The position numbers and the translations under genes were made by a program. A stretch of DNA of 64,000 nucleotides from a virus. Under the pieces are notes generated by a model. The model did no database searches. It was given only the letters and a program-made list of their open reading frames with translations, and was not told the origin of the DNA. Of the stretch, positions 41,079 to 61,750 are shown piece after piece. Location: positions 115,055-179,054 of the IMG/VR virus record IMGVR_UViG_3300010352_001565; one strand, given 5' to 3'. Every line of letters starts with the position of its first letter. Within the stretch, counting starts at the first letter, position 1.

Positions 41079-41106
41079 TTTACATTTTTCCGAAGAATGA
41101 TATAGT
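41079..41106 (+). promoter_or_regulatory. sigma70-like promoter P7 (TTTACA-N16-TGaTATAGT), ATG 8 nt downstream
   Basis: aaaaatagttgcaaataaatgTTTACAtttttccgaagaaTGaTATAGTgcttgtgtATG. Confidence 0.6.
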
Positions 41107-41114
41107 GCTTGTGT

Positions 41115-41996
41115 ATGCCAGATCAAAACAACACTGAACTCGTTACGACCGTCGGCGTCGAGATCGAGATGGAAAACACACGGAATGTCAACTCAGATGT
41201 CCGTTTCATCTCTGACAAGCTCTCCCGTGCCGGTCTCAACTGGGTCGTTAAAACAGACGCTTCTTGCGGCCGCTCTGGAGCGGGAGTTGAGCTAAACTCT
41301 CCCATTCTGCGCACCGACGCTGATCTCAATTCTGTGTCGAGAGTCTGCGAAATGATGGATGAACTTGGTTATAAGGTGACGAAGAAATGCGGGTTGCACG
41401 TCCATATCGACGTCCGCCGTCTCACTGAGGACGAGAGAAACCGCCTTATCCGCTTCTTTGTCCAATACCAAGACTGCTTCTTTGAGCTCGCTCCTGGACG
41501 CCGCGCGGTGCACTACTGCGCGCCGCTGACGGCAGACGTGCTTGCTAAGCTGCGGCAAAACCGCGGTTGGTCTGCGTGGTCTACCCGCTATTTCTGGATG
41601 AACGGGTGCGCTTACACGGAACACGGCACTGTTGAGTTCCGCCTGATGAGTGGCAGCCTCAACCCGAATCATGTGACTGGATGGGTCAACTTCTTGCTTT
41701 ATGTCTATGACAAGGTTGTGAACCACGGAGCTTTCGGAGACGCCACATTCTTCCATCCAGATGCTTCGACTGGACGCGACTGCTTTGACAAAATGCTGCA
41801 CGTCACTGGACTTGACAACCTCGAGGTTGAAGGTCGAGCTGAAGTTGCTCGCAGCTGGGTGACCGCTCGCTGGGACGACGCTCACTCAGATGTCCAGTCA
41901 ATTCGCGCCGAACGACGCCGCCGCCTCCAAGCTGCTTGGCGCGGTGAAGCCCCGTATGTGAAAATCGTATCGCCTAACACCACAATGGCTGACTAG
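41115..41996 (+). CDS. glutamine-synthetase-fold amidoligase (Amidoligase_2/GCS2-like), paralog A
   Basis: TVGVEIEM first strand, GLHVHIDV, VEFRLMSGSLN; same three blocks in genes 43378 and 56981; ORF track start 41109 is alternative upstream codon. Confidence 0.6.
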   Translation: MPDQNNTELVTTVGVEIEMENTRNVNSDVRFISDKLSRAGLNWVVKTDASCGRSGAGVELNSPILRTDADLNSVSRVCEMMDELGYKVTKKCGLHVHIDVRRLTEDERNRLIRFFVQYQDCFFELAPGRRAVHYCAPLTADVLAKLRQNRGWSAWSTRYFWMNGCAYTEHGTVEFRLMSGSLNPNHVTGWVNFLLYVYDKVVNHGAFGDATFFHPDASTGRDCFDKMLHVTGLDNLEVEGRAEVARSWVTARWDDAHSDVQSIRAERRRRLQAAWRGEAPYVKIVSPNTTMAD

Positions 41997-41997
41997 T

Positions 41998-42186
41998 ATG
42001 GGAGACATGGGAGACACATTCAGAGAATTGAAGGACGAACGAAAGCGACTCCGTGAAGAGCACGGAGTCAGCTGTCCTCAGTGCAACGTCAAGCAGCCGA
42101 AGCGGATTCCGACTACCCTTCTGCCGGGACAGCGGTGCAAGGTTTGCGGGTACGTCGACCCGCGTCCGCGACTTCCGTGTTCTTAA
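41998..42186 (+). CDS. small zinc-ribbon protein
   Basis: CPQC..(18 aa)..CKVC. Confidence 0.35.
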   Translation: MGDMGDTFRELKDERKRLREEHGVSCPQCNVKQPKRIPTTLLPGQRCKVCGYVDPRPRLPCS

Positions 42187-42303
42187 AAGCATGGCAGACT
42201 TGAAAGAACTTTTAGAGAAGCTCGCGCAAAGCTCGCAAAGCTAATTTCGCGCCGTGACAGAGAACCCGTTTGACTGGAGCGGTATCCGCATCGCAGTTGA
42301 AGA

Positions 42304-42822
42304 TTGGTCATGCTGTCACGGCGTGTTCTTCTGCTCATGAGCAGACTCTACGCTTTGAGCAAAATAATCTCGTTCCATGACTTGCGCACCTGGAGATCTC
42401 ACCAAGCCGGAAAGGTGGTCGCGACCAATGGAGTCTTCGACATACTTCACGCCGGTCACTGCTCATATCTTCAGCAGGCAAAAGAGCTCGGAGACCGCCT
42501 TGTCGTAGGAATCAACAGCGACTTCGCCGTCAAGTCCCTTAAAGGACCGGCACGCCCAGTAAACTCCCAAGACCACCGCGCCCAGGTACTTGCAGCTCTC
42601 GAGTGCGTTGACGCAGTTTGCATTTTCGACAGCACAAACGCTTCCCTATTTCTTATGCTTGCCGACCCGACCATCTGGGTGAAGGGAAGCGACTACAATA
42701 TCGACAAGGTGAATAAAGAAGAGCGGGATGTGCTTCAGAGCCTCGGGACTGAGATCAAATTCATTCCTTTAGTGGTCGGACTTTCAACAACTTCAACCAT
42801 CGCCAAGATCAATGGACTTTAA
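42304..42822 (+). CDS. sugar-1-phosphate nucleotidyltransferase, RfaE domain II/HldE-like (ADP-heptose synthase-type)
   Basis: TNGVFDILHAGHCSYLQQAKELGDRLVVGINSD..VKSLKG..RPVN..R..VLAALE.VD.V..F...KG.DY parallels RfaE-II FTNGCFDILHAGHVSYL..A..LGDRLIVAVNSD.S.KRLKG..RPVN; HxGH motif. Confidence 0.7.
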   Translation: MVMLSRRVLLLMSRLYALSKIISFHDLRTWRSHQAGKVVATNGVFDILHAGHCSYLQQAKELGDRLVVGINSDFAVKSLKGPARPVNSQDHRAQVLAALECVDAVCIFDSTNASLFLMLADPTIWVKGSDYNIDKVNKEERDVLQSLGTEIKFIPLVVGLSTTSTIAKINGL

Positions 42823-43381
42823 GAAGGATCCGAAGTGCGCCCCGATCGAAATGCGCCGAGATGTGGAGCACCTGGTTGAGATGATCTACACCAACCTGAA
42901 GCAGCCGTATGCATCAATCTGGATCTCCCAGGTGACCCTCCTGGCTCCTCGGTGCAACACAACTAAGCTGTGCAAGGCCATGACATTCTGGATCCTTAAC
43001 GAGCTTACTGGGATGGTCGATTCAATTCGCGCTAGACGCCTAAAAAGGACGATTGCGTTTTACTACAAAATCCATACATCCGAGGCGGCGCACTGCAAGG
43101 CGCTTGTTCATCGGAAAACAAAGAAAGCGGCTCTCCGGTCCAGGGGATACGCCCAGAAGTTCGCCGTTCAGGCCATGGCGTTTGCAATTAAAAACGGGTA
43201 CCGCTCATCAGCCCAGGCTCTTAGGGCGTGCATGCTGTCGCGAATCGCGGTCCGCTCAGGGTCTAAGAAGCACTATCAGCTCAGGCCACATCTTGCTCCT
43301 CACACAGATCCGTTCGGATGCTACACCCATGCCGCCGTAACACTTCTGGTGATGCTTAACCGCTTTGTAGTTAAGCAGTGA
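42812..43381 (+). CDS. hypothetical basic protein
   Basis: 189-aa ORF. Confidence 0.4.
   Translation: MDFKKDPKCAPIEMRRDVEHLVEMIYTNLKQPYASIWISQVTLLAPRCNTTKLCKAMTFWILNELTGMVDSIRARRLKRTIAFYYKIHTSEAAHCKALVHRKTKKAALRSRGYAQKFAVQAMAFAIKNGYRSSAQALRACMLSRIAVRSGSKKHYQLRPHLAPHTDPFGCYTHAAVTLLVMLNRFVVKQ
43368..43380 (+). promoter_or_regulatory. late-type motif TAGTTA-N4-GTG
   Basis: tgTAGTTAagcaGTG. Confidence 0.45.
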
Positions 43382-44373
43382 ACGCCAGACGCGAAATTTG
43401 CAATCTGTTTGAGGACGCTGATCTCAATCTTGGCAGCGTTGGAATTGAGATCGAGATGCTTGCCAGGAAGGACTTGGTTGCAAACCGAGAGCTTGAAGCA
43501 GTTGTCCGCCAGCTCGATTTCACGTACGGGTTCGACGATTCTGTCACTCCAATGGCAGGAAGCCTTGAGGAGCTTTACACAAACGTTGAAATCTCAATCG
43601 GTCCTGATAGGTGGGACTGGATCTCCAAGCGGTTGATGAAGATGCTGGCGTACCTCAAGCACGAGGACTACGTCGCGGTTTCTCGAAAGCACTCAAACAG
43701 CCCTGTCTCAATTTCAACTGAAACGGATCTCTACTCTGATGGCGCAAAGAAAATCAGGCTCGCAAGAGCAAGGGTCCCTCAAAATTTCTCCGCCGGAGTT
43801 CACATCCACTTCGACGCCAACAGCTGGTTTTCAGGAACAGAGCACGCAGCTCGGTTTGTCAAGGTGCTAAATCGCTGGATTGAAGATGTTCCGAGACACC
43901 TGCCAGTTCAGCGTTACGGAAACGACGGCGAGCGAGGCCACGAGTTCGCCAGGATCCAAGGTTATCACGAATTGAACGGGGACAACTGGGGATCAGGATA
44001 CATCAAGCCAGCGGAGTATTTCCACAGAATAGGAAAGAATGTTGACAGGTTCATGGCGCTCAACGTTAAACCAGCTCTGAAACGCGGCGACATTGAGTTC
44101 AGATTCATGCACGGAACTCTCAACTACGCAACAATCGCGGGTTGGTTTGAAACCCTGGCAGAGCTTATGACATACGCGCAGCGCGAGCATGGAGGGTTTT
44201 CGGACTTCGTAGCTTGGTCTGCAAAGAAAGCTCCTGAGACCAAGAAGTTCATCGAGAAATCGTACAAGCTGAGCAAGGCGTCAAAAGAGCCGATCAGAAT
44301 TTCCCCATCAAGAGCCGCTAAAAAGATCCTCAATCCGCGGGCGGCTGACGCGCCTGTGTCAAACCCGGCATAA
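43378..44373 (+). CDS. GS-fold amidoligase, paralog B
   Basis: SVGIEIEM, GVHIHFDAN, IEFRFMHGTLN. Confidence 0.6.
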   Translation: MNARREICNLFEDADLNLGSVGIEIEMLARKDLVANRELEAVVRQLDFTYGFDDSVTPMAGSLEELYTNVEISIGPDRWDWISKRLMKMLAYLKHEDYVAVSRKHSNSPVSISTETDLYSDGAKKIRLARARVPQNFSAGVHIHFDANSWFSGTEHAARFVKVLNRWIEDVPRHLPVQRYGNDGERGHEFARIQGYHELNGDNWGSGYIKPAEYFHRIGKNVDRFMALNVKPALKRGDIEFRFMHGTLNYATIAGWFETLAELMTYAQREHGGFSDFVAWSAKKAPETKKFIEKSYKLSKASKEPIRISPSRAAKKILNPRAADAPVSNPA

Positions 44374-44375
44374 GG

Positions 44376-44404
44376 TTTACAAACTTAAGCAAGCGTGCTA
44401 TGTT
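44376..44404 (+). promoter_or_regulatory. sigma70-like promoter P13 (TTTACA-N17-TATGTT)
   Basis: ggTTTACAaacttaagcaagcgtgcTATGTTagacaaagccATG. Confidence 0.35.
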
Positions 44405-44414
44405 AGACAAAGCC

Positions 44415-44660
44415 ATGGTACTGTTTTTCATACTTCTGCTGGTTTGGACATTTGCGATCGTAATGGCCGCGGCCCTGCTGTGGCTTATTTTTGCCGGACT
44501 TAAACCAGCGCTGAAAGGAATGGCAAACTACTCCGGATTGATTTGGCTAGCTATTGTCATCTCTCTTATCACGCTTTTTGTGGCGCATGACGACCGTGTC
44601 ACCGGATGGGTATTCGTCGTGATGATAGCCATCAGCCTTATTGCTTCGCATCGCAAGTAG
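44415..44660 (+). CDS. small membrane protein (3 hydrophobic segments)
   Basis: MVLFFILLLVWTFAIVMAAALLWLIFAG..; second in-frame ATG of ORF 44400..44660. Confidence 0.35.
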   Translation: MVLFFILLLVWTFAIVMAAALLWLIFAGLKPALKGMANYSGLIWLAIVISLITLFVAHDDRVTGWVFVVMIAISLIASHRK

Positions 44661-44941: not shown

Positions 44942-45766
44942 CTAGATCACGTGGGGCTCAATCTTTCCAAGAGCTCCGGCCAGCTGTGTAAACGACGACC
45001 CTCTCGTTCCGATAATTTCCTCACACGCTCCTAGGGAGTAGAGATCACACAGCGCTTCAAACATCCCTTCTTTCGACGAGCGATCAACTCCGTTTTCTCC
45101 CCACGCCAGCTTGTTCTGAACCGTTACTCTGCTTCCGTATCTCCTGACAAAGTCTCGAGTCACATCCATGCTGTCTGTCGAGAGAAAGATTGGACGGCCG
45201 GCACAGGCATGATCGATCCTGCAGAAAAATGGCGTTGGCTTGTTTTCATGCCAGTTGACCGACCGCGCGTGGACCCCGACTGACCCGGGTTTCACTCGCG
45301 CGACGCTTGAGTCGATCAGCTTTTGAAGCGCGTCTGTCGGGACAAGCTTGCGAATCCGACTATGGATTTCTCCCATGGCCGTCCCATAGTCGTCGCCGCT
45401 AAACCTCGGGCTTCCCCACGAGCGGATCAGCACGATCGTCTCCCGGTCACGAACGTCTATCGGCTGCTCTGGGTTGTACACCTTCAGAGAGTGCGCAGTA
45501 TCGAGCATCCAGTAGAAGTCCCACTCGCTTATAAGGTGAACGTCCATCTTAAACAAATCGTTGAAGTTGCACCCCACACCGTCGCTTCCGTTTACCGGCC
45601 AATAGAGTGCCAAGTTTCGGCGTGTAACCTCGGCGATCCTCTGGCATCCTGCGAGAGTAAAGATTCTGTTGGATAGACCCGCGCTGCAAGTTGCATACAA
45701 GATCTCGTTTAATCCACTCGGATTCGTGTAGAAAGGCCACACCGCTTTTTCTTTGTAGTGATGCAT
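44942..45766 (-). CDS. GT11/GT23-like (fucosyltransferase-type) glycosyltransferase
   Basis: Minus-strand ORF trimmed to internal ATG (MHHYKEK..); N-terminal CSAGLSNRIFTLAGCQRIA resembles G-x-G-N-x-(L/M)F motif I; C-terminal GTRGSSFTQLAGALG resembles motif III (S-T-F-S..A). Confidence 0.5.
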   Translation of the reverse strand: MHHYKEKAVWPFYTNPSGLNEILYATCSAGLSNRIFTLAGCQRIAEVTRRNLALYWPVNGSDGVGCNFNDLFKMDVHLISEWDFYWMLDTAHSLKVYNPEQPIDVRDRETIVLIRSWGSPRFSGDDYGTAMGEIHSRIRKLVPTDALQKLIDSSVARVKPGSVGVHARSVNWHENKPTPFFCRIDHACAGRPIFLSTDSMDVTRDFVRRYGSRVTVQNKLAWGENGVDRSSKEGMFEALCDLYSLGACEEIIGTRGSSFTQLAGALGKIEPHVI

Positions 45767-45812
45767 CAGAGTATGAGAACGTGTACGTATATAGACTGCA
45801 CCGGAAAGATTT

Positions 45813-46176: not shown

Positions 46177-47310
46177 ATGAGTAACGTATCACCGCAGCAA
46201 GTCGCCTCTGTAATGAGGCTCACGGACAACCAGCTCAAAGCCGAATATTGGATCGGCAATAAGACTGGCCACTTGTTCAGGATCATCCGTATCGAAGGAA
46301 ACGGTTCCGCCCGCGAGGTCACCTACTGCGCTCCCGGCCAGCAAGAGACCTATACGAAGCCTCTTGACAAGTTCGCCAAAATCTTCCACCAAGCTGATCG
46401 CGACGAGATCTACTCTATTCTCGCTCCGCTGATTCAGCCTGTCGGTGAGGATGAAGCTGTTGGTCTGCTTATTGAACCCGACCAACGCCACGACTTCGGC
46501 CGCATCATCCTCCACGAGGAAACCCGCTTAGCCATCTCCACCGGTCTGAAGCGCATTCAAAACCGCGACGCCATGGAGCAAGTTTGGGGTCTGAGCGCCA
46601 TTGAGCCTCTCGGCAACCGCTGCATCTTGAACGGCTGGGGATTGCCCGGCACCGGCAAGACGCTCGCCTGCTACTGCATCGCTCGCATGCTTGAGAAGAA
46701 AGTCTATCAGGTCGACTACTCTGCCATCATTTCAAAGCAGCTTGGTGACACTGCCAAGCACATTGTGGCTGCGTTCGCTGCTGCCAAAAAACACGACGCC
46801 ATCTTGCTTTTCGACGAAGCAGACTCTCTTGTGTCTCGCCGCATCGAGATAGCCATGAGCACGTCGTTCGCGACCAGCATCAACCAAAACCGCAACGTGT
46901 TCATGCAGGAGCTTGACCGCTATGACGGGATCGTTTACTTGACCACCAACATGTTCGAGAACTACGACCCAGCCATGCTGCGCCGCATTGCTCGTCACAT
47001 CCCGTTCAATCTGCCCAATGCAGAAATGCGCCGGCAACTCTTTGCATGGCACCTCCCTCGCGTCGAGCGCGTCCGCATTAGCGATTGGACGAACATCTGC
47101 GCTTCGACAGAGGGCTTCTCTGGCGGCGACATCAAGAATGTTGTCATGAATTCGATCGACCGCGTCAGCATGAGCGAGGACCCGGAAACGTGGTATCTGA
47201 CTGAGGACGCTGTTCTCACTGAGGTTGGACTCATCAAGAGCTCCAAGGAACGCCACGCCCGGAACAACGGCCGCAATGACGAAGCCATCGCCGCAGCCAC
47301 CTTGAAATAA
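46177..47310 (+). CDS. AAA+ ATPase
   Basis: Walker A GLPGTGKT, Walker B ILLFDEADSL, sensor-1 TTN, arginine finger region MLRRI. Confidence 0.7.
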   Translation: MSNVSPQQVASVMRLTDNQLKAEYWIGNKTGHLFRIIRIEGNGSAREVTYCAPGQQETYTKPLDKFAKIFHQADRDEIYSILAPLIQPVGEDEAVGLLIEPDQRHDFGRIILHEETRLAISTGLKRIQNRDAMEQVWGLSAIEPLGNRCILNGWGLPGTGKTLACYCIARMLEKKVYQVDYSAIISKQLGDTAKHIVAAFAAAKKHDAILLFDEADSLVSRRIEIAMSTSFATSINQNRNVFMQELDRYDGIVYLTTNMFENYDPAMLRRIARHIPFNLPNAEMRRQLFAWHLPRVERVRISDWTNICASTEGFSGGDIKNVVMNSIDRVSMSEDPETWYLTEDAVLTEVGLIKSSKERHARNNGRNDEAIAAATLK

Positions 47311-47645
47311 TGCGAGTCGTCCAAACAGTTTCTCACTACGACGGTCGCGTCAGAAAGCGCGACAAGTGGACCTGGGCCGTCCGTCTCGACGGAACGGCCC
47401 AGGAGCTTAAAACCGTCCAGTATGTGGTCTATGAGCTGCACGAGTCCTACCGCGACCCGATTCAGATCGTGGACGACCCGCGGAACAACTTTAGGCTCTT
47501 CGGGGCATCCTACGGCTCATTTACGATTGGAGTTGAGATCTACTTCAAGCACGGGACTCCCGGCATGTCTGGGAAGAAACTGAAAGCGAAGATAAAGCTC
47601 CGCCTGTTTTACCCGACGGGGCTTTATCACCGAATTGAAGACTAG
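47310..47645 (+). CDS. hypothetical protein
   Basis: 111-aa ORF, ATGA overlap. Confidence 0.4.
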   Translation: MRVVQTVSHYDGRVRKRDKWTWAVRLDGTAQELKTVQYVVYELHESYRDPIQIVDDPRNNFRLFGASYGSFTIGVEIYFKHGTPGMSGKKLKAKIKLRLFYPTGLYHRIED

Positions 47646-48526
47646 TCCGCCATGATGGCCTGGACTTTAACCTTTCCAGTCGAGGCCTCTGATTCTCCGT
47701 AGTAGAAACGGAGCCACACCGCGCCGGTCGGTTTAGGAGGACCGCCGCGCTCGATGTGCCAGCCTTCAGAACCATCCGCAAACTCATCCTTGTAACCCGG
47801 CGTCTTAATGTGAAGCTGGGTGTCTTTGTAAATCACGCCAGAGTTGCTCAACCTCAACCTCTCGATCGGGAAGATCCATTCGTTGTGGGTGTGGCCTGTG
47901 CACACAATGTCGGCGTCAGGCAGGTACACCGACATGCGGTTTGTTTGGATCGTTCCTTTGGTAACCGGAGCGTCGCCTCCGTAGCCATGGTGGTAGTACA
48001 GTCGCTTGCTGAGCCGCTGCGTGCCGTGCACGGTAAACATGAACCGCATCCATCCAGAGAATCCTCCGATATAGATCGGGTTGTCGACAGGACGCATTGT
48101 GTTTAGGATCTGAACGAACCTCTCTGTCAGGTTTGTCTGATGATGCTTGAGAATGCTTCCCTCGTGGTTTCCTGGGGCAACAAGAGCAAAATTCTTAGCG
48201 TACGGTTTGTAAAAATCGGCGTTGTAGTTGACGAGCCTGTCGAGGTAGTTCGCTCCTCGAAGCTCGGGACGCATTTGACTTTCGTCAGCGCGCTTATCCC
48301 ATTTTCCTTGCATCGCACAGAAAAGATCCCCGTACTTCACGATCAGCGCGTCGCGCTTAAGCGCCTCATCGAGATGTTTCTTTTCAAGAGCATGATCGCA
48401 ATGAATGTTGTCGTGGTGTTCGTCAGATGAAAGTAAGACCCACTGTTCCCATCCCAATTTAACGTCATCGATGTACACTGACAATACATTCCGGGACTCC
48501 GACCTTAGCTGAATGGAGTTTTTCAT
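47642..48526 (-). CDS. calcineurin-like metallophosphoesterase
   Basis: SSDEHHDN, APGNHEG and GHTHNEWIF blocks (GDxHG / GNHE / GHxH metallophosphatase motifs); convergent with gene 47310. Confidence 0.65.
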   Translation of the reverse strand: MKNSIQLRSESRNVLSVYIDDVKLGWEQWVLLSSDEHHDNIHCDHALEKKHLDEALKRDALIVKYGDLFCAMQGKWDKRADESQMRPELRGANYLDRLVNYNADFYKPYAKNFALVAPGNHEGSILKHHQTNLTERFVQILNTMRPVDNPIYIGGFSGWMRFMFTVHGTQRLSKRLYYHHGYGGDAPVTKGTIQTNRMSVYLPDADIVCTGHTHNEWIFPIERLRLSNSGVIYKDTQLHIKTPGYKDEFADGSEGWHIERGGPPKPTGAVWLRFYYGESEASTGKVKVQAIMAD

Positions 48527-48593: not shown

Positions 48594-48622
48594 TTTACAA
48601 GGTTTTGTTAACGTGCTACAGT
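48594..48622 (+). promoter_or_regulatory. sigma70-like promoter P14 (TTTACA-N17-TACAGT), uncertain
   Basis: gggTTTACAaggttttgttaacgtgcTACAGTATG; ATG abuts -10; divergent from minus-strand gene 47642..48526. Confidence 0.3.
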
Positions 48623-48946
48623 ATGAGGGTGGGCAAACAACTTAAACACCAAGTTGAAAGGAAACATATGAACATGACTGATCAAATAATCGCGGGTAAA
48701 CCGGCGGATGAAAAACTTCCTCCGCAGGCAAGGGAGATCGTAAAAGCAGTACGGGCGACGCACGGTGTTACGCTTGACCGGCTAGCCACCAAGTTGGATG
48801 GAAAGCTGAAGACTAAACAGCCTGTCAAGCGTATCATTTCGTTTTACATGCCCAGGCTGAAAAAAGGCGGATACTTGAAAGTCGCACACGCCAAGAAACA
48901 AGAGCCTCGCTCGAAGAAAATTCACGCTTCAGCGAAAGCAGCGTAG
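48623..48946 (+). CDS. small basic protein
   Basis: ATG within ORF 48605..48946; lysine-rich C-terminus. Confidence 0.4.
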   Translation: MRVGKQLKHQVERKHMNMTDQIIAGKPADEKLPPQAREIVKAVRATHGVTLDRLATKLDGKLKTKQPVKRIISFYMPRLKKGGYLKVAHAKKQEPRSKKIHASAKAA

Positions 48947-49580: not shown

Positions 49581-49590
49581 TTAGGGGGTG
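49578..49590 (+). promoter_or_regulatory. late-type motif TAGTTA-N4-GTG (TAG is stop of upstream gene)
   Basis: gcgTAGTTAgggGGTG. Confidence 0.5.
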
Positions 49591-53700: not shown

Positions 53701-54057
53701 ATGTTTCGCGAAAAAATACTAGCCGTAGTTCGCGTTGAGTTTGCTGAACCCGTCACTGTAAACCTGACGGCTGCAAGCTCGCACGAGCCGGATCTTGTCA
53801 CTATCAATTTCGGATCTGCTTCCGAATTTCCGCTGAACCGCCTTGAGAATCTCAAGAAAGGATCGATTGTCACGATTTACACTCGTCTTCCAAAGAGCCG
53901 CGTGTTGTGGCCCTGGTCTTTTCGCGTGAACCGCCAAGGCCAATCGATGGCATCGCGCCATAAACCGGCAGGATGGCAAGTAGCATTTTCTCCATCCGTA
54001 GGAGATCCTGTCACAATTGAGATTGTGAGCATGGACATAACCGCATCAACTGTATAA
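53701..54057 (+). CDS. hypothetical protein
   Basis: 118-aa ORF. Confidence 0.4.
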   Translation: MFREKILAVVRVEFAEPVTVNLTAASSHEPDLVTINFGSASEFPLNRLENLKKGSIVTIYTRLPKSRVLWPWSFRVNRQGQSMASRHKPAGWQVAFSPSVGDPVTIEIVSMDITASTV

Positions 54058-54075: not shown

Positions 54076-54891
54076 ATGTCAAAACAATTCTTCGCGCTAA
54101 ACGACGGGTCAAACCCTCTTGCTTGTAACCTAACAGAGTTGAACGCCGCTGAGTCGGTCGATAATGGCTTCATGAGCCACAACGACTGGATCGCCCACGT
54201 TAACCGTTATGCTTACACCGGCAAGGTCATCCAGAAATCAAAACCTGGCACGATCCTTGACGTGGGATGCGGAAAGCTCCAGCTTCCGTACTACCTGTGG
54301 CGCAACCGCCTACATCTGGAAGAAAACGGGTCCTACTGGGGTATCGAACTCCGCGCCAAGCAGGCGTGGCTTGAACCGATCAACTGGAAGACCAGCATGA
54401 ATCTCATCAAGGCTGACATCATTCTTGACGAGATCAACGAAGACAACATTGAATTCTGGCCTGGCCAGTTCGACCTTGTCACCTGCTTCGAGACGTGGGA
54501 GCACGTTCCGCGCGACAAAGCCATCATTCTGGCCGAGCGCTTGTTCAACTGGACGAAGCCAGGAGGAATCCTGTTGTTCAGCTCTCCGAATGCCGGAGTG
54601 TCCGATTCAACGGCTGACAACCACACGGACGCAGAAGGCGAAAGCCGCGAGTGGGAGATGGAGTCGAAGATTGAAGTTCTCGAAGACGCTGGATTCAGCC
54701 TGCACGAGAACTTTGGAACGTTTTGCGGCATCACTCGCCTTCCTGAGGAGTTCCAGGAGCGCCTGCGCACCGACGCCTTGCTGATCCAGGCGAAGAAGTT
54801 CCTGAACCACGCAAACTTCACGGCGCTTGTGGCCGCGGCATACCCGCAGTTCAGTAACAACAGCCTGATGCACTTTGTGCGCAGAGCGTAA
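54076..54891 (+). CDS. class I SAM-dependent methyltransferase
   Basis: Motif I ILDVGCGKLQ, downstream DLVTCFETWEHV (motif II/III), Rossmann-MTase length. Confidence 0.6.
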   Translation: MSKQFFALNDGSNPLACNLTELNAAESVDNGFMSHNDWIAHVNRYAYTGKVIQKSKPGTILDVGCGKLQLPYYLWRNRLHLEENGSYWGIELRAKQAWLEPINWKTSMNLIKADIILDEINEDNIEFWPGQFDLVTCFETWEHVPRDKAIILAERLFNWTKPGGILLFSSPNAGVSDSTADNHTDAEGESREWEMESKIEVLEDAGFSLHENFGTFCGITRLPEEFQERLRTDALLIQAKKFLNHANFTALVAAAYPQFSNNSLMHFVRRA

Positions 54892-55093: not shown

Positions 55094-56107
55094 GTGAAAG
55101 CAAAGTTGTTTTTGGTAGATGGAGCAGACGGAACCGGAAAATCTACCCTTGCAGAGGAGATCCGGAGACAGACAGATGGAGTCATCCTTCACCAGAGTTA
55201 CCGCTGGCGCGACATGATGTTTGTCTACCACACAGCCGCCCTCCACTTCGCCGAAAAGTTCATCGCTAAAGGAAAGACGGTCATCCTCGACCGCCACTGG
55301 CCGTCAGAGATGGTATATGGTAAAGTGTTCAGGAACGGATCCCGTTGGCCTCTTGAAGGACGCATGATGGACCGAGTCATACTCAAGATGGCAGGAACGT
55401 ATATCTTCACCCTTGGAGATCCAGAGGCCATCGCCAAGCGCCATGCCCAGCTTCAGTGCGTCCGAAGGGAAGAGTATTCGCACTCGATTTCTCAAGTAGC
55501 CACAGAATACAACAACCTATTTTATGGGTTTCCGCACAAAGTTGCCAAAGACCACGCCGAATTTATTGCAAGCACCGGAGGCTTCATACACAGGAAAGAT
55601 GCGTTCGCTTATCGTATGGAGATCGAAGGACAGGATGTCTGCGGTTTTGTTGAAGCTCTGATAAACAAGGCTGGAAAATACACCGCAGTGCAGTATCAGC
55701 CAGCTCTTCAGTCCCGATTTCGAAATGTGCTAGGCCACATCGAGTCTGCTCGCTTTCTAATCGTCGGTGACGAGGCAAACCCGAAGATGAACCACATCTT
55801 TTGGCCGTTTCATGACTACGGTCACTCTAGCTTGTTTTTGGCCCGCACCTTGCACAACATCAACTTCCGCGAAGAAGATGCGATGTGGACCAACGTGAAT
55901 CACTCTGACCATGCTGACGCGCACATTCGCGCAATACTAGAGATGAAACCACTCCGCGTGGTAGCTCTCGGCAAGAATGCTGAAGCTGGATTGAAGAAGA
56001 TTGGGGTCAACGACTTTGTGACTGTCAGGCACCCGCAAGCGGCAATGCGATTTTCGTCGCTTTCGGATGTGTCTTACAAGGACGAATTGAGCCGAGCATT
56101 GTTCTAA
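55094..56107 (+). CDS. fusion of P-loop (d)NMP-kinase-like domain and UDG-superfamily-fold domain (5-hmdU DNA kinase / aGPT-Pplase-like candidate)
   Basis: GTG start; N-terminal LVDGADGTGKST (Tmk-like P-loop) and ILDRHW lid region; C-terminal VGDEANPK..WPF.D.G..SLFLARTL (cf. UDG family-4 motif A GEAPG..E...G.PF.G..G.LL) and RHPQAAMR (cf. motif B HPSPL). Confidence 0.55.
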   Translation: MKAKLFLVDGADGTGKSTLAEEIRRQTDGVILHQSYRWRDMMFVYHTAALHFAEKFIAKGKTVILDRHWPSEMVYGKVFRNGSRWPLEGRMMDRVILKMAGTYIFTLGDPEAIAKRHAQLQCVRREEYSHSISQVATEYNNLFYGFPHKVAKDHAEFIASTGGFIHRKDAFAYRMEIEGQDVCGFVEALINKAGKYTAVQYQPALQSRFRNVLGHIESARFLIVGDEANPKMNHIFWPFHDYGHSSLFLARTLHNINFREEDAMWTNVNHSDHADAHIRAILEMKPLRVVALGKNAEAGLKKIGVNDFVTVRHPQAAMRFSSLSDVSYKDELSRALF

Positions 56108-56112
56108 TAGGA

Positions 56113-56928
56113 GTGCAAAAATTTAGAACCCCGAGCGAGGCTTATTTGGCTGTCCTCGCCGACGTTGTAGACAACCCAGAATACCGCGTTTCTCCACGCG
56201 GGCAGCCGATAGCCGAGAAGACAGACTACTCGTTTGAGGTAGCTCTCCCAGATGCAAGCCCGATCGTCACCCGTTCAGAGTCCCGCAACAAAACCATTGC
56301 CGACTACACCCACAAGGAGTTTGAGGTTTACGAGAGCGGATCTCGCAGAGTTGAGGATTTCGCGAAGATCAGCAGCTTCTGGAAATCACTCGCAAATCCA
56401 GATGGAACGATCAACTCGTCTTACGGACACTTGATCTTCAAAAACCAGTCGTGCGGAAATCCAACGTACGAAGTTCAGCGCAAGTTTCTGAACGAGCACG
56501 ACGGCAATGGCGGATCGGAAGGAGTGAACCTCAGCGAGCTTGAGCGAACACCATGGGAGTGGGCTTCCGAGTCTCTCATCCAGGACAAAGATACCCGCCA
56601 AGCCATCATGCACTTTAACCTTCCTGAACACTGTTGGGTCGGCAACCGTGACGTCACATGCACGATGCATGGAATCTTCCAGATACGCCAGGACAAACTC
56701 AACCTCTCAGTGGTCATGCGGTCAAATGACGTCGTTCTTGGTCTCGTATTCGATCTACCATGGTTCATGCACCTGATCGACAGGATGGTCGCAGCGCTGA
56801 AGCCAACGTATCCTGCCCTCACAAAAGGCCACTACCGCCACATGGCGCACTCAATGCACGTCTACGGACGCGACATGGAAAAGGTGAATATGATGCTCGG
56901 CAGGGGTATGCTCAGCGGCGCTCAGTAA
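56113..56928 (+). CDS. divergent thymidylate-synthase-family paralog (pyrimidine hydroxymethylase candidate)
   Basis: GTG start; DVTCTMHGIFQ aligns to ThyA PCHAFFQ (Cys retained); VVMRSNDVVLGLVFDLPWFMHL aligns to [23 protein letters not shown]; far more divergent than thyA at 52768. Confidence 0.55.
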   Translation: MQKFRTPSEAYLAVLADVVDNPEYRVSPRGQPIAEKTDYSFEVALPDASPIVTRSESRNKTIADYTHKEFEVYESGSRRVEDFAKISSFWKSLANPDGTINSSYGHLIFKNQSCGNPTYEVQRKFLNEHDGNGGSEGVNLSELERTPWEWASESLIQDKDTRQAIMHFNLPEHCWVGNRDVTCTMHGIFQIRQDKLNLSVVMRSNDVVLGLVFDLPWFMHLIDRMVAALKPTYPALTKGHYRHMAHSMHVYGRDMEKVNMMLGRGMLSGAQ

Positions 56929-56946: not shown

Positions 56947-56974
56947 TTTACAATTTTCCGTATCGTGATATAGT
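56947..56974 (+). promoter_or_regulatory. sigma70-like promoter P10 (TTTACA-N16-TGaTATAGT), ATG 6 nt downstream
   Basis: taaaatagttgcaaataaatgTTTACAattttccgtatcgTGaTATAGTtctgatATG. Confidence 0.6.
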
Positions 56975-56980
56975 TCTGAT

Positions 56981-57961
56981 ATGAACGCTGTACTACCAGT
57001 CACGGTCGGTTTTGAGCTTGAGTTTGGCTCGCCGAACCAGCAGATACTTTCTGTGATTGCCGACGCCATGGCGAGGAACAACTACCCCGTCACCAACTTC
57101 GGCCGCTGGCGCCACACTCCTGCCAACCCATCAACGTGGGATCTCAAAACCGATTCGAGCTGCGGATACCGCGAAGGCGTGGGCGGGTTTGAAGTTGTGA
57201 GCCCCGTGATTCGCACGTACGACGAGCTCGTGCACGCCGTCAAGGTTGCCAACATCGTCACCCGTTGTGGCGGAAGTGCGAATCGCCGCTGCGGTCTGCA
57301 CGTCCACATCGGGTTTCGCCAGTTCAACACTCCCGAAATTCGGGAGCGCCTGTTTCGATTTCTGTCTCGCTACGAGGAGGCATTCTACATGCTCGTTCCA
57401 GAAACCCGCCGCAACAACCCCTACTGCAAACCGATGAACGTGCGAATCATCGAGTCGGTTAAAGCGAAGCATGGGCGCGTTGACGTGGGAATGGCATGGC
57501 AAGACAAGAACACCTGGATCAACTTCGCGACTCTGAACCGCATCGGCACCGTAGAGTTTCGCTTCATGGAAGGAACTCTCGACCCAAATCTCATCCTCAA
57601 CTATGTGATGTTCCTCGTCCATGTTATGGACACGATTATCGCTGGGAAGCGGGTGTCCTGGGGTCGCGCCAGCGCCAAGAGCAACCGCATGCTGTTTTTC
57701 ACCATGCTGCAGCAGCTCAATCTCTACGGAAAGAAATCCAAGTCGCAAGACGAAGACCGCGCCAAGACAGTTCGAAAATGGACGGTCAAGAGGTTTGCCG
57801 CGTTCAACCCAAATCCAAATCAGCCTCGGCAAGAGCTGACGGGTCGCGCAGAAGACCGTCCTGCTTTGACTGAAGCAGACATTGCGAACCGCGCACAGGC
57901 TGAGGCCGTCCCAACACCAGCGCCCGCCAACCCGGGTCAACCTAATGGAGGTGTGCAATGA
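56981..57961 (+). CDS. GS-fold amidoligase, paralog C
   Basis: TVGFELEF, GLHVHIGFR, VEFRFMEGTLD. Confidence 0.6.
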   Translation: MNAVLPVTVGFELEFGSPNQQILSVIADAMARNNYPVTNFGRWRHTPANPSTWDLKTDSSCGYREGVGGFEVVSPVIRTYDELVHAVKVANIVTRCGGSANRRCGLHVHIGFRQFNTPEIRERLFRFLSRYEEAFYMLVPETRRNNPYCKPMNVRIIESVKAKHGRVDVGMAWQDKNTWINFATLNRIGTVEFRFMEGTLDPNLILNYVMFLVHVMDTIIAGKRVSWGRASAKSNRMLFFTMLQQLNLYGKKSKSQDEDRAKTVRKWTVKRFAAFNPNPNQPRQELTGRAEDRPALTEADIANRAQAEAVPTPAPANPGQPNGGVQ

Positions 57962-58883: not shown

Positions 58884-58896
58884 TTGCAAATAAATG

Positions 58897-58924
58897 TTTA
58901 CAAATTTCCGTAGCGTGATATAGT
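58897..58924 (+). promoter_or_regulatory. sigma70-like promoter P11 (TTTACA-N16-TGaTATAGT), ATG 6 nt downstream
   Basis: cgaaaatagttgcaaataaatgTTTACAaatttccgtagcgTGaTATAGTcctcccATG. Confidence 0.6.
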
Positions 58925-58930
58925 CCTCCC

Positions 58931-59518
58931 ATGAACGACAAACTTTTGGTGATACCCGGCGTCCAAATGCCGTTTTTCCCGATGCGCCCGACAACGGGTT
59001 CGATGATCAGGGGAATCGAGCAGATTGACACCATAATGGAAATGATCTCCTCCCACACCTGGGAGGTTCAACCCAAGCTTAACGGTGACCGCGTGACGGT
59101 GGCTGTGATTGACGGCAAAGCTTACGCCCAAAACCGCCACGGAAAGTGGTACAGCTACACCATCGAAAATCTCAAGTCTTACCTGGCGCTTCCAAACCGC
59201 ACACTGCTTGACGGAGAAGTCTACGAGAAGATGTTTTATCCGTTTGAAGCTCTTGCTATCGGCGGCGAATCCCTGATGCGCGAGTGCCCGTCAGTCCGAA
59301 TCGGGACTGCCAAAGCGTTCTCTCACGTCATTGGCGTCGAGTGGAAATTTGAAACCCCTACTCGCGAGTGGCTGATCAAAAATTTTCAGGAGCAGACCAA
59401 GCTGCGTGTTCCCGTGTGGGAAGGAATCGTTCGCAAGAAAGTCGGCACGCCGTACGCGATTCTCGGATCTGATAGCCAAGAGAGCACTAACGTCTTCAAA
59501 AACAAATGGATCAAGTAA
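58931..59518 (+). CDS. minimal ATP-dependent ligase-like nucleotidyltransferase domain protein
   Basis: KLNGDR (motif I-like KxDGxR variant), LLDGEVY (motif III), WEGIVRKK (motif IV EGxVxK); only ~195 aa. Confidence 0.5.
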   Translation: MNDKLLVIPGVQMPFFPMRPTTGSMIRGIEQIDTIMEMISSHTWEVQPKLNGDRVTVAVIDGKAYAQNRHGKWYSYTIENLKSYLALPNRTLLDGEVYEKMFYPFEALAIGGESLMRECPSVRIGTAKAFSHVIGVEWKFETPTREWLIKNFQEQTKLRVPVWEGIVRKKVGTPYAILGSDSQESTNVFKNKWIK

Positions 59519-59519
59519 T

Positions 59520-60134
59520 ATGATTGCATTCCAAATTCAAGCTGTGACAACAGGGTGCCAACCGTGGGTGTTTAACGGGGTGCACCGTGTAGAAAGCCAC
59601 AAGCAGCTCAAGCAGGAGCTCGGTCGGTTGATGACCCAGATGAACGCTGGGACGACCATCTCGCTCGCCATCAACGCAGATTTCACGCGGCATCAGGTGT
59701 GCAATTACATCGCGCTATGCCGCAAAAGCTGGGACAACCTGCAGTTCATGGCAGGTCACGAAGGCTCTGCACCGGCAAATCCGTGGAGGTCGATGCGCAA
59801 CAACGAAGCGCTCGATCTTTCAGAATTAAGCACCCGCAGCGTCACCATTACTCCGACAAATGGCGTCATCATCTACCTGCTCTGCGGGGTGACAACCGTC
59901 GAGGTTATTTGCGCCTTCGCTTATCGAATGCTGAACATGGCAGAGTGGTGCATCAAATACGGAAGTGAAATCAAGCTGACGTCGGATACCGTTCTTAAGC
60001 GCGAGACATTTGACGCGATAACTCGCGATGTGAAGCCAGCGCTCACCCCGCAAGCCAGGGCAGAGTCCAGAGTGGAGCCCGTAGAGCCCGAGGATGAAGA
60101 CGAGAGCGAAGGCGAGGACCCAGAAGAGAATTAG
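59520..60134 (+). CDS. hypothetical protein with acidic C-terminal tail
   Basis: First ATG beyond gene 58931 within ORF 59406..60134; C-terminal EPEDEDESEGEDPEEN. Confidence 0.45.
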   Translation: MIAFQIQAVTTGCQPWVFNGVHRVESHKQLKQELGRLMTQMNAGTTISLAINADFTRHQVCNYIALCRKSWDNLQFMAGHEGSAPANPWRSMRNNEALDLSELSTRSVTITPTNGVIIYLLCGVTTVEVICAFAYRMLNMAEWCIKYGSEIKLTSDTVLKRETFDAITRDVKPALTPQARAESRVEPVEPEDEDESEGEDPEEN

Positions 60135-60162
60135 TCAGCCAACCCAATAAACCCAGAGATCA

Positions 60163-60190
60163 GCCGGCGATTAACTTCGCCGGCTTTTTT
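60163..60190 (+). terminator. rho-independent terminator
   Basis: gccggcga-ttaact-tcgccggc (8-bp perfect stem) then TTTTTTATT. Confidence 0.65.
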
Positions 60191-60202
60191 ATTCTGCAAT
60201 AG

Positions 60203-61750
60203 ATGATCGATTTAAAGCGCGTAACATACTTCCTTGCAGACGGCCGTCCAGTAACTGACAGCTTCATTCGAAATGTCACAAAGCTCGTTGACACCGCGAG
60301 AAAGCACTTCAACTTCAGCGCTGTTAAAATCGGGTGTCCAACCGATCCAAAAATACCAGGAGCCGAATGGGTCGAAACTCCGGTGATGCTCAATCTTGAT
60401 GCGTACAGCAGATTTTGCTTGTATGAGATGGCCGACCATGTAGACTCAGAGTTTGTGCTGGTCTTTCAGGAGGATGGTTTCATCGTCAACCCTGACACCT
60501 GGGACGACAGCTTCTTGAACTACGACTATATCGGATCTCCGTGGCCGCAGCTCGGCATGAGAGTCGGAAACGGAGGATTCAGCCTTAGGAGCAAGCGCCT
60601 GCTCCAGGAGGTCAAGAAGCTCGGAGAGTTTGTTGGAAACGAGGACTGGATCATGTGCTTCCAGCTCAAAGATCAGCTCGAGAAAGCTGGGATGAAATGG
60701 GCTCCTCTAGAGGTAGCCCGTAAGTTCTCAATCGAGTATCCCGTTGATGACAGCCACCTTGTGTCGACCAGCTTTGGTCAGCACTCGCGCAGGCCTTCTA
60801 ACGTTCTGGGCGAGATCAGGCACCAGAACATTAGCGCCGAAGTTCGCGAGGTGCTAAACGACATCGTGGAGCTTGGGTACGCGGTATTTGACAGCGACGG
60901 CGCGTATCGGTACATTGCGCCAAAGGTAAATCTGTGGTCTGGCCGCTGGAGACAGATGTCGCAGTTTTTGCAGGGGCTCAACGGCGCTGGAAAGCTTTCT
61001 GGAGAGTTCTTTGTCTGCTTGTTCGACGGCTGGAGAGAGTACGCGCATCCGAGTGACGAGAAAGTCTTCGTGCCGTGGAGTTCAGTCGACAAGAGCTTGT
61101 TCCTTGGAAAAGGAACGTGTGAAGAGCCGCGGTTTGTGCATGCCTGCCAAGACACGAACATTTTTCCAATCATGCCACATCCGGTCATCGCGTTCAACCG
61201 CCACACCGACGACGCCAACACCCTAGTCATTCCTGACCCCGACTTTATAGACACTGGGTTCAAGGAATTCGCGAAGGAGGTTGCTGACAACGACATTCCA
61301 TGGGAGCGAAAAGTAGACCTGGCCATCTGGCGCGGAAGAAGGCACGTTTCAGACTACAAGGTTGATCCAGTTTTGCATGCGCGAGACAGAATCACGCGCC
61401 TAGACGATTCCCTCCTGAGCGCATCGTACTCGTACGACACACCTATTAGCGAGCAGCTCAAGTACAAGTTCATCGTTGACGTTGAAGGAACGACCTCGTC
61501 GTGGAGTGGGCTTTATTGGAAGCTCCTGTCCAACTCGCTGGTCATCAGGATCAAGTCACACTGGGAAAACTGGTATTCCTCTAGCCTAATCAACGGCGAA
61601 AATTGCGTGGTAACAACAATTGAGGACCTTCCAAAGTGCATCCGCTGGTGCGTAGACCACCCGGTCGCTTGCGAGCGCATGGCTGCCAACGGCACCAAGC
61701 TGGCCCGCAAGCTCAATTACCAGCACGCCATCGAGCGCTTCCCGCGCTGA
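60203..61750 (+). CDS. two-domain glycosyltransferase: DUF5672-like N-terminal domain + GT90 (CAP10-type) C-terminal domain
   Basis: N-terminal DGFIVNPDTWDDSFLNYDYIGSPWP..GNGGFSLRSK (DUF5672-like); C-terminal DLAIWRGRR .. KYKFIVDVEGTTSSWSGLYWKLLSNSLVIRI (GT90 signature KY..IDiDG...S.RL..LL.S.SVVL). Confidence 0.6.
   Translation: MIDLKRVTYFLADGRPVTDSFIRNVTKLVDTARKHFNFSAVKIGCPTDPKIPGAEWVETPVMLNLDAYSRFCLYEMADHVDSEFVLVFQEDGFIVNPDTWDDSFLNYDYIGSPWPQLGMRVGNGGFSLRSKRLLQEVKKLGEFVGNEDWIMCFQLKDQLEKAGMKWAPLEVARKFSIEYPVDDSHLVSTSFGQHSRRPSNVLGEIRHQNISAEVREVLNDIVELGYAVFDSDGAYRYIAPKVNLWSGRWRQMSQFLQGLNGAGKLSGEFFVCLFDGWREYAHPSDEKVFVPWSSVDKSLFLGKGTCEEPRFVHACQDTNIFPIMPHPVIAFNRHTDDANTLVIPDPDFIDTGFKEFAKEVADNDIPWERKVDLAIWRGRRHVSDYKVDPVLHARDRITRLDDSLLSASYSYDTPISEQLKYKFIVDVEGTTSSWSGLYWKLLSNSLVIRIKSHWENWYSSSLINGENCVVTTIEDLPKCIRWCVDHPVACERMAANGTKLARKLNYQHAIERFPR

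Follow-up and report, generated by a model that had tools for sequence, protein, structure and literature searches.

What modification is made by the enzymes encoded in a ~20-kb block at positions 41079-61750 of a newly analysed stretch of viral DNA, and how much of the block takes part in it? The stretch comprises 64,000 nucleotides (positions 115,055 to 179,054 of the IMG/VR record IMGVR_UViG_3300010352_001565) and is referred to as the window; coordinates are those of the window unless a phage or another locus is named. The block had been read from its sequence as a single DNA hypermodification system in which thymine or cytosine is hydroxymethylated, phospho-activated, and then amidated or glycosylated (the original prediction). 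Pfam, PHROG, and NCBIfam profile searches uphold nearly all of the domain calls behind that reading, each at its position. However, the block probably contains a T4/RB69-type cassette for pre-replicative cytosine replacement, with a functional core that spans 52.8-58.0 kb, not the whole 20 kb. In other words, a conserved cassette is predicted to replace cytosine with a derivative of 5-hydroxymethylcytosine (5hmC), and the 20 kb around it mix genes of several kinds instead of forming one pathway. Of the chemistry first proposed, the hydroxymethylation of cytosine is kept as a prediction, whereas thymine as the target and a route through the enzymes 5-HMUDK and aGPT-Pplase are not. The window corresponds to positions ~84-64083 of contig k141_348389 (68,022 bp, ENA ERZ27257423). 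A protein identical to one of the amidoligases of the block (AL3, described below) is also encoded on a 222,710-bp contig, and the source of the window is therefore a jumbo phage. The phage is new, because a search for near-identical DNA among GenBank phages returned a sole match of 49 bp in thyA.

The target base is indicated by a divergent ThyA-family protein encoded at 56113-56928 (+; Pfam Thymidylat_synt, 7e-14). Its best matches in the PDB are hydroxymethylases, namely MilA (2e-13) and T4 gp42 (2e-12), and not thymidylate synthases. It is identical to T4 gp42 at 12 of the 12 active-site positions, defined as residues within 6 Å of C5. According to a rule established for ThyA homologues, N177D marks deoxycytidine monophosphate (dCMP) as the substrate, L143D/E marks a hydroxymethyl product because the acidic residue gives water access, and D169N marks a 5-hydroxy-dCMP synthase (Lee et al., NAR 2026, PMC13326640). 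The 56113 protein displays D143 (L143D), C146, D169, and D177 (N177D), and its catalytic Cys, at the position of E. coli C146, lies within DVTCTMHG. The same four residues are present in all 70 hydroxymethylases that neighbor homologues of the kinase described below, and D177 is found in 69 of the 69 that can be aligned at this position. E. coli ThyA, the canonical ThyA of the window, and the M6 gp58 deoxyuridine monophosphate (dUMP) hydroxymethylase served as controls, and all three have Asn at position 177. The 56113 protein is thus predicted to be a dCMP hydroxymethylase (5-hydroxymethyl-dCMP synthase) that makes 5-hydroxymethyl-dCMP (5-hm-dCMP) from dCMP and methylenetetrahydrofolate. The earlier view of this gene as a divergent ThyA paralog stands; its assignment as a dUMP hydroxymethylase does not, as the signature is of the dCMP type. 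Two other identities were considered and rejected. A 5-hydroxy-dCMP synthase of the RB69 gp48 type is not supported because D169 is kept in the window and in all homologues. A dCMP methylase module of the Xp12 type does not fit either, as the Xp12 enzyme has N143 and its module is devoid of genes for the methyltransferase and the kinase/UDG protein.

The phage also keeps a true thymidylate synthase. A canonical ThyA is encoded at 52768-53697 (+; Pfam 1.5e-101), as had been called, and it shows the same L143/C146/D169/N177 signature as E. coli ThyA. Likewise, a separate thymidylate synthase, ThyX, is encoded in three related loci (L003, L006, and L092; the L numbers denote the viral loci described below) and in the cultured phage AXL3. 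The canonical ThyA sustains dTMP, so thymine is not the base being replaced. Taken together with the N177D signature, this makes cytosine, not thymine, the target base, and the thymine-directed 5-hydroxymethyldeoxyuridine (5-hmdU) pathway of the original prediction is not borne out. A hydroxymethylase alongside a separate thymidylate synthase is how T4 is organised, and it is not what a phage that replaces thymine would be expected to show.

The gene in front of the hydroxymethylase (55094-56107, +) encodes a fusion of two domains, with a Tmk-like match and a weak match to uracil-DNA glycosylase (UDG) in Pfam. A nucleotide kinase occupies residues ~1-195, and a domain of ~135 residues resembling family-4 UDGs occupies residues ~200-337. 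Both folds, which had been called from the sequence, were confirmed by an AlphaFold2 (AF2) model of high quality (pLDDT 94, pTM 0.93). In Foldseek searches, the N-terminal domain matched 3kb2 (YorR), deoxynucleoside kinases, and Tmk, and the C-terminal domain matched 1l9g (the family-4 UDG of T. maritima) and UdgX, with a probability of 1.0 for 1l9g and 6iod. The kinase conserves the P-loop GxDxxGK[ST] and the Tmk-type motif DRxWxSExxY. In what we take to be the base-reading 'AYQ' motif of Tmk, the Gln is replaced by G, A, or S in the kinase alignment. An hhalign comparison of the kinase family with the RB69 gp45 nucleotide kinase gave a probability of 95% (E 3e-8, 95 columns), and the kinase adjoins the hydroxymethylase in 77 of 87 loci. 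The motifs of the UDG-like domain, G-[DE]-x-x-N-P-K, W-P-F, T-N, and H-P-Q..R-F, show little or no variation. They are variants of UDG motif A (G-E-x-P-G...P-F), the base-reading Asn, and motif B (H-P-S), and the profile of the domain aligns with motif A and the TN motif of UdgX. The copy in the window contains no Cys and hence none of the cysteines of a 4Fe-4S cluster. The domain may act, speculatively, as a uracil or 5-hydroxymethyluracil glycosylase for quality control, or as a base-flipping reader.

The fusion belongs to a large family, with 2,084 cluster representatives (50% identity) at E<=1e-3 and 1,031 at E<=1e-10. Among the best-scoring matches listed, nearly all are ~330 amino acids long and carry the UDG-like domain at the C-terminus. 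No stand-alone open reading frame (ORF) for the UDG-like domain was found in ~90 viral loci. An alignment with 29 homologues indicates that the GTG at 55094 is the correct start; the public gene call (P0001, 297 amino acids) starts 40 codons late, omitting 55094-55213 and with it the Walker A P-loop.

The original prediction had assigned the two domains of this protein to the thymidine pathway, the kinase as 5-HMUDK and the glycosylase fold as aGPT-Pplase. Neither assignment is borne out. An hhalign comparison of the kinase with 5-HMUDK of phage M6 (gp54) covers only the 25 columns of the Walker A motif, and no M6 or ViI-type phage is among the listed tblastn matches at E<=1e-3. Furthermore, the partners of a 5-HMUDK were not found in the block: the hydroxymethylase is of the dCMP type instead of the dUMP type, and aGPT-Pplase was detected in no ORF scanned. 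aGPT-Pplase has a glycosylase-like fold of the helix-hairpin-helix type with a catalytic Cys and a neighboring Glu (PMC8989533). The C-terminal domain of the window protein has the alpha/beta fold of UDG and no Cys; therefore, equating a UDG fold with aGPT-Pplase fails. The aGPT-Pplase Pfam profile does not match the 55094 protein even at E<=10, and hhalign of the UDG-like domain against M6 gp51 gave a probability of 1.8%.

Which other genes of the block belong with the kinase and the hydroxymethylase? This question was approached by gathering 87 loci around kinase homologues, to which more were later added (~90 viral loci), and searching them with 30 proteins of the block by tblastn. Besides the kinase/UDG gene, only the hydroxymethylase (70 loci) and a S-adenosylmethionine (SAM) methyltransferase (54 loci) co-occurred widely. 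The methyltransferase is encoded at 54076-54891 (+), and Pfam confirms the earlier call (Methyltransf_23, 2.4e-11). It resembles small-molecule and O-methyltransferases, its nearest PDB and NCBIfam match is UbiG (~1e-5), and it carries EVLEHV-type motifs and no N6/N4 amino-methyltransferase motif. Among loci with enough flanking sequence, presence counts based on hidden Markov models (HMMs) place the methyltransferase in 35/37 loci with the fusion and in 19/23 loci with the kinase only. It is thus as constant as the hydroxymethylase, and it always occupies the same position in the operon. The methyltransferase of the window is 51-58% identical to those of L003, L004, L006, and L092. The closer relatives of the window are L003, L004/5, L006/7, L035, L091, L092, and L093, at 36-58% identity. 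De novo clustering returned the order DUF932, methyltransferase, MazG/PRA-PH, kinase with or without UDG, hydroxymethylase, dCMP deaminase, and DNA polymerase, and MazG and dCMP deaminase usually accompany the core of methyltransferase, kinase, and hydroxymethylase. On the other hand, the GT90 gene, the GT23-like gene, the AAA/pYEATS pair, the phosphoesterase gene, and the AL2 gene of the block (all described below) were not found near the cassette in other loci, and the endolysin gene likewise shows no co-occurrence with the core. The co-occurrence data and the domains together bear out a conserved pyrimidine-modification cassette with uncharacterised partner enzymes; the claim that the whole 20 kb is a single system fails, as only the methyltransferase, kinase/UDG, and hydroxymethylase genes co-occur widely.

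Two further genes were seen in the kinase-only loci, which are of a marine and freshwater podovirus type. A 343-amino-acid protein with no family match is encoded directly upstream of the kinase in 16 loci, and a UDP-glucose/GDP-mannose dehydrogenase gene lies near the hydroxymethylase in 11 loci (examples from kinase-only loci are L077 8985-10019 and L063 13701-14972). These loci may be sugar-tailoring variants of the module.

Indirect evidence for the chemistry of the cassette comes from cultured phages. The core is present in two of them, Pseudoxanthomonas phage PW916 and Stenotrophomonas phage AXL3. In AXL3, gp31 is the methyltransferase, gp30 a nucleoside-triphosphate pyrophosphatase (NTP-PPase), gp29 the kinase with its UDG-like domain, gp28 the hydroxymethylase, gp27 a dCMP deaminase, and gp50 ThyX. 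These genes were verified with HMMs built from the family of the window, and gp28 carries the D/C/D/D signature. AXL3 DNA resists 35 of 37 restriction enzymes and is cut only by TasI and Tru1I, whose sites consist of A/T only, from which it was concluded that G/C bases are altered (PMC7504290). This resistance would fit the replacement of cytosine by the module. A literature search on AXL3 DNA chemistry found no paper identifying the modification, and searches for methoxymethylcytosine, for a kinase/UDG fusion with a dCMP hydroxymethylase, and for a pelagiphage hydroxymethylcytosine module found no description of the module. The two phages share with the module the order methyltransferase, NTP-PPase, kinase/UDG, hydroxymethylase, and dCMP deaminase. 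They differ from the jumbo phage in being small siphoviruses with no amidoligase, ligase-like nucleotidyltransferase, or glycosyltransferase gene nearby. The database annotations of these genes look wrong. PW916 (OL960029) 43663-44481 is annotated as 'deoxyuridylate hydroxymethyltransferase' and carries the dCMP-hydroxymethylase signature, as does AXL3 (MT536174) gp28, annotated as 'thymidylate synthase'; AXL3 gp29, annotated as 'thymidylate kinase', is a kinase/UDG fusion.

How would the cassette work? To judge from its active-site signature, the ThyA paralog would convert dCMP to 5-hm-dCMP. The Tmk-like N-terminal domain would then phosphorylate 5-hm-dCMP to the diphosphate, as its fold, motifs, and homology to the RB69 gp45-type kinase suggest. 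The nucleoside-diphosphate kinase of the host would make the triphosphate, the phage polymerase would incorporate it, and the canonical ThyA would continue dTMP synthesis. The UDG-like domain keeps the pyrimidine-pocket and catalytic motifs and could, speculatively, act on the DNA as a glycosylase or a reader. The methyltransferase might tailor 5hmC; the simplest guess is that it O-methylates the hydroxymethyl group. Because the methyltransferase is so rarely missing, virion DNA probably contains a tailored rather than a bare 5hmC. In the lineage of this jumbo phage, the cassette has been joined by the AL3 amidoligase and by a minimal nucleotidyltransferase of the ligase-like kind. The RfaE-II-like protein and the glycosyltransferases found elsewhere in the block might attach a sugar, for instance heptose, to 5hmC, a link suggested by a single relative.

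The proposed pathway has parallels in several known systems. The T4 gp42 pathway comprises gp42, a dNMP kinase, a dCTPase, a dCMP deaminase, and td, followed by glucosyltransferases. It shares with the window the identical 12-residue signature, a dedicated kinase, and a thymidylate synthase encoded separately, and the operon of most related loci also encodes a dCMP deaminase and a pyrophosphohydrolase of the MazG type. However, the kinase of the window is Tmk/YorR-like and fused to a UDG-like domain, whereas T4 uses a gp1-type dNMP kinase. In addition, the constant partner here is a SAM methyltransferase in place of the alpha/beta-glucosyltransferases of T4, and no T4-type glucosyltransferase was detected in the window. 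In the clusters of RB69, DLP3, and RL38J1, a ThyA homologue likewise lies beside a Tmk/YorR-like nucleotide kinase with nucleotide-sugar and glycosyltransferase genes nearby, but those ThyA homologues are 5-hydroxy-dCMP synthases (D169N), while the window keeps D169, and the clusters are devoid of the UDG-like domain, the SAM methyltransferase, and the amidoligase (PMC13326640). The 5hmC carbamoyltransferase clusters identified by MetaGPA (PMC8670742) combine one tailoring enzyme with ThyA-like, PRA-PH/MazG, and dCMP deaminase genes on cytosine-modified contigs; the tailoring enzyme there is a carbamoyltransferase, whereas here the constant candidate is Methyltransf_23. The 5-hmdU systems of M6, ViI, and PaMx11 (PMC5889632, PMC8989533) also begin with a ThyA-like hydroxymethylase followed by further enzymes. 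They differ in that the base is U/T and not C, the kinase and the transferase belong to families unrelated to the window proteins, and the glycosylase-like fold is helix-hairpin-helix and not UDG.

The amidoligases of the block set the jumbo-phage version of the cassette apart. Three had been called. Two of them are clear members of the Amidoligase_2 family, AL1 at 41109-41996 (+; 1.4e-18, 68 bits) and AL3, with the glutamine synthetase (GS) fold, at 56981-57961 (+; 7e-21, 76 bits); the third, AL2 at 43378-44373 (+), is a highly divergent amidoligase-like protein with a marginal match (5e-5, 23.7 bits against a cut-off of 22). AL1 and AL3 are 30% identical (blastp 5e-38), and AL2 matches AL1 over 54 residues (blastp 1e-5). 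A fourth paralog lies just outside the window, at 19146-20141 of L090 (contig k141_348389), which corresponds to ~64359-65354 if the window were extended. It carries an N-terminal WGR domain (Pfam 3.6e-5) before Amidoligase_2 (5e-21, 76 bits). Pfam describes WGR as a proposed nucleic-acid-binding domain, which hints that at least one amidoligase is targeted to DNA. That the amidoligases act on DNA is speculative, the sole support being the WGR domain of the fourth paralog. AL3 orthologues (40-47% identity) adjoin the hydroxymethylase in L004/5, L006/7, L091, and L092, an adjacency not seen in L093. An AL3-type gene beside the hydroxymethylase occurs in four independent arrangements. AL3 is absent from ~80 podovirus-type loci, and its link to the hydroxymethylase is confined to the large-phage clade of the window. 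No close relative of AL3 turned up when IMG/VR was scanned.

A minimal ligase/capping-type covalent nucleotidyltransferase with no OB domain is encoded downstream of AL3, at 58931-59518 (+). The earlier call of this gene holds: the Pfam match is weak (DNA_ligase_A_M, 1e-4), and motifs I, III, IIIa, IV, and V can be recognized in the sequence as KLNGDR, LLDGEVY, FYPFEAL, EGIVRKK, and KNKWIK. Homologues that are 38-46% identical are encoded in L003, L091, L092, and L093, which makes it a recurrent neighbor of the cassette in related large phages.

The sugar genes show a different pattern. A sugar-1-phosphate nucleotidyltransferase resembling RfaE domain II is encoded at 42304-42822 (+). Its match to TIGR02199 (1.3e-48, 164.5 bits against a cut-off of 181.5) bears out the original call and, as judged from the sequence, places it clearly within the RfaE domain II family; it is a candidate source of a nucleotide-heptose donor. 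A glycosyltransferase with DUF5672 and GT90 domains (60203-61750, +; Pfam 9e-19 and 2.5e-12) was likewise called correctly. It belongs to a separate transcription unit and shows no co-occurrence with the cassette. Phage homologues of the DUF5672 protein and of the RfaE-II-like protein sit among sugar-pathway genes of cyanophages. The weakest of the calls is a possible GT-B glycosyltransferase of the fucosyltransferase superfamily (GT11/23-like) at 44942-45766 (-). It matches NodZ weakly (E=0.011 over 70 residues) and contains the strings AGLSNR, HVRRxD, FLSTDS, and SSFT, which we take to be fucosyltransferase-type motifs. Three homologues were found, and an AF2 model built from three sequences was unusable (pLDDT 47.5). 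Thus, nucleotide-sugar and glycosyltransferase genes do lie nearby, but the set predicted earlier has no conserved link to the cassette.

One partial exception is L035 (IMGVR_UViG_3300006931_000029, 225 kb). In this locus, a GT9 heptosyltransferase-like gene (7923-9404, -) is divergent from the adjacent kinase/UDG gene, and an RfaE-II-like gene (1785-2216, +) whose product is 35% identical to that of the window is separated by 8 kb from the genes for the kinase/UDG protein and the hydroxymethylase. Production of heptosyl-5hmC has been shown for a phage gene cluster that includes a CTP_transf enzyme together with a GT-B glycosyltransferase (bioRxiv 2023.12.21.572611), and L035 is a candidate heptosyl-5hmC phage. 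In that cluster, the CTP_transf-type enzyme supplies the activated heptose to the DNA glycosyltransferase. Of the components of its contig 53, only CTP_transf was found in the window: no HAD or APH match was detected among the scanned ORFs, and neither the bifunctional HAD/APH enzyme nor the GT-B enzyme resembling T4 beta-glucosyltransferase was found in the window.

Transcription signals also divide the block. A promoter-like motif of 28-29 nt, TTTACA-N16/17-TATAGT, occurs nine times in the window, always on the + strand (4042, 21752, 24981, 28276, 39835, 41079, 46141, 56947, and 58897); none is expected in shuffled sequence. The copies also have an extended -10 TG and a common spacer, ..TTTyCGTrGCGTGA.. 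Within the block, the motif lies just upstream of AL1 (41079-41106), the AAA gene (46141), AL3 (56947-56974), and the ligase-like gene (58897), and the other five copies lie at 4-40 kb, upstream of the block. A strong terminator-like hairpin at 60162-60185 parts the unit of the ligase-like gene from the GT90 gene. Because of the several promoter-like motifs and the hairpin, the block consists of several transcription units and is not one operon. Its middle part holds genes of other kinds. Two calls that hold in profile searches are an AAA ATPase (46177-47310, +), which matches IetA of the IetAS defence system (PADLOC 2.7e-28), and a metallophosphoesterase (47642-48526, -; Pfam Metallophos 1.5e-4). 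A pYEATS gene (47310-47645, +), absent from the original prediction, overlaps the AAA gene by one base, and the phosphoesterase gene is convergent onto this pair. In the AAA/pYEATS pair, the prokaryotic YEATS domain stands in place of the IetS protease. An endolysin gene (51815-52255), a DUF7694 gene, and several ORFs with no family match were likewise not weighed earlier.

Four other explanations of the locus can be set against a cytosine-replacement cassette. The thymidine hypermodification model, in which a dUMP hydroxymethylase and 5-HMUDK act in turn, aGPT-Pplase introduces an amine, and amidoligases or glycosyltransferases decorate the product, is suggested by the side-by-side arrangement of a ThyA-like gene, a P-loop kinase, and a glycosylase-like domain. 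It also draws on amidoligase and glutaminotransferase Pfam matches reported on 5-HMUDK/aGPT-Pplase contigs (Lee et al., PMC8989533). Yet the hydroxymethylases of the window and of neighboring homologues have N177D where M6 gp58 has N177, and the canonical ThyA is kept; the kinase shares only Walker A with M6 gp54, and the glycosylase-like domain resembles aGPT-Pplase neither in profile (M6 gp51 and Pfam) nor in fold or catalytic Cys. Moreover, the DNA of AXL3 is cut at A/T-only sites. The model is already largely refuted, and we consider it very improbable. Ordinary nucleotide metabolism and repair, with a second thymidylate synthase, a thymidylate kinase, a UDG, and no DNA modification at all, would agree with the Pfam matches (Thymidylat_synt, Thymidylate_kin, and UDG) and with the annotation of AXL3 gp28 and gp29 and many phage records as thymidylate synthase or kinase. 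It can hardly account for an active site of the dCMP-hydroxymethylase type in phages that always encode a true ThyA or ThyX too, for the replacement by G/A/S of the Gln that Tmk presumably uses to read the base, or for the resistance of AXL3 DNA at G/C-containing sites, and is just as hard to believe.

The two other explanations accept 5hmC and differ in how much is done to it. In one, the DNA contains bare 5hmC, and the methyltransferase, UDG-like domain, amidoligases, and glycosyltransferases serve repair, methylation of RNA or small molecules, or modification of the virion or host envelope. A hydroxymethylase and a kinase would indeed suffice for a first stage like that of T4, the methyltransferase is of the small-molecule type (UbiG-like, with no N6/N4 amino-methyltransferase motif), neither the glycosyltransferases nor RfaE-II travel with the core, and homologues of RfaE-II and DUF5672 lie in cyanophage sugar clusters. 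However, the linkage of the methyltransferase, as tight as that of the hydroxymethylase (35/37 and 19/23), is hard to explain unless the two share a pathway, and the T-even and RB69-type phages described in the literature considered here further glycosylate their C5-hydroxylated cytosine. We regard bare 5hmC as unlikely. The opposite extreme takes the whole of 41-62 kb as one pathway that uses four amidoligases, RfaE-II, and both glycosyltransferases to build a glycosylated and amidated 5hmC, for example a heptosyl-5hmC that bears an amide-linked group. Its genes lie within 21 kb, several of them behind the same promoter motif; L035 has a GT9-like gene and an RfaE-II-like gene, heptosyl-5hmC is a precedent with CTP_transf, and one amidoligase paralog has a WGR domain. 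Against it, apart from AL1/AL3-type genes, ligase-like genes, and one RfaE-II homologue, none of these genes was found within 10 kb of the cassette elsewhere. The endolysin, the IetA-like AAA/pYEATS pair, and the phosphoesterase interrupt the block, the promoter motif also occurs five times at 4-40 kb, and the GT90 gene follows a terminator-like hairpin. This explanation is accordingly quite improbable.

Several points also weigh against the preferred reading, a T4/RB69-type cassette for cytosine replacement with its core at 52.8-58.0 kb. The substrate and product of the hydroxymethylase are read from signature residues, and position 143 discriminates between hydroxymethyl and methyl products by correlation, the Xp12 dCMP methylase having N143. 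A MazG/dCTPase, which would exclude canonical dCTP, and a dCMP deaminase were not found in the window by tblastn or HMMs, although other parts of the 222.7-kb genome may encode them. Identity between the window proteins and their AXL3 counterparts is only 21-33%, which makes the transfer of the AXL3 phenotype indirect. Synteny with the closest loci may in part reflect shared ancestry, as a baseplate-J-like gene is also conserved beside the cassette. Furthermore, 5hmC has no evident carboxylate or amine handle for a GS-type amidoligase.

What would follow from the cytosine-replacement cassette? By its signature residues, a predicted dCMP-hydroxymethylase cassette would be a very common module of viromes that is misannotated in the phage records examined. 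It has two uncharacterised constant partners, the SAM methyltransferase and the kinase-fused UDG-like domain, and a culturable carrier, AXL3, in which the chemistry is directly testable. The window adds a jumbo-phage version whose amidoligases might extend that chemistry. A tentative suggestion, which we hold to be possible rather than probable, is that the module makes an undescribed cytosine derivative such as 5-methoxymethylcytosine and that GS-type amidoligases extend the base on DNA in the jumbo phage. If true, this would be the first amidoligase-dependent modification of a DNA base and the first role of a UDG-fold domain in making, rather than removing, a modified base. Phage DNA hypermodifications decide the success of restriction enzymes, CRISPR, and other nuclease defences, and they are a source of tools for epigenetic sequencing.

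A few other genes of the window recur near the cassette. The protein encoded directly after the canonical ThyA (53701-54057, +; 118 amino acids) has no family match in profile searches. Homologues of 118-125 amino acids (33-37% identity) are encoded directly after ThyX in L003 (13255-13632) and ~1.7 kb from ThyX in L006 (4522-4899), and the protein may be a thymidylate-synthase-associated factor. A ~113-amino-acid protein encoded at 48605-48946 gives only weak Sigma70_r4-like matches; its homologues lie upstream of the genes for the methyltransferase and the kinase, no more than a few kb away, in at least nine other loci, several of them podovirus loci (e.g., L049 4105-4518). Beyond the block, a putative baseplate protein of 787 amino acids is encoded from 61767 to the end of the window at 64000 (to 64130 on the contig). 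It has no Pfam match itself. An L004 protein that weakly matches Baseplate_J_C shares 57% identity with it and an L035 protein 44%, both encoded within a few kb of the kinase and hydroxymethylase genes. PHROG matches are few across the 1-41 kb part of the window. One of the proteins encoded there (13669-17901, 1410 amino acids) has a stretch of ~70 residues in common with the product of a 618-amino-acid ORF within the block (49588-51444), and both match phrog_20946.

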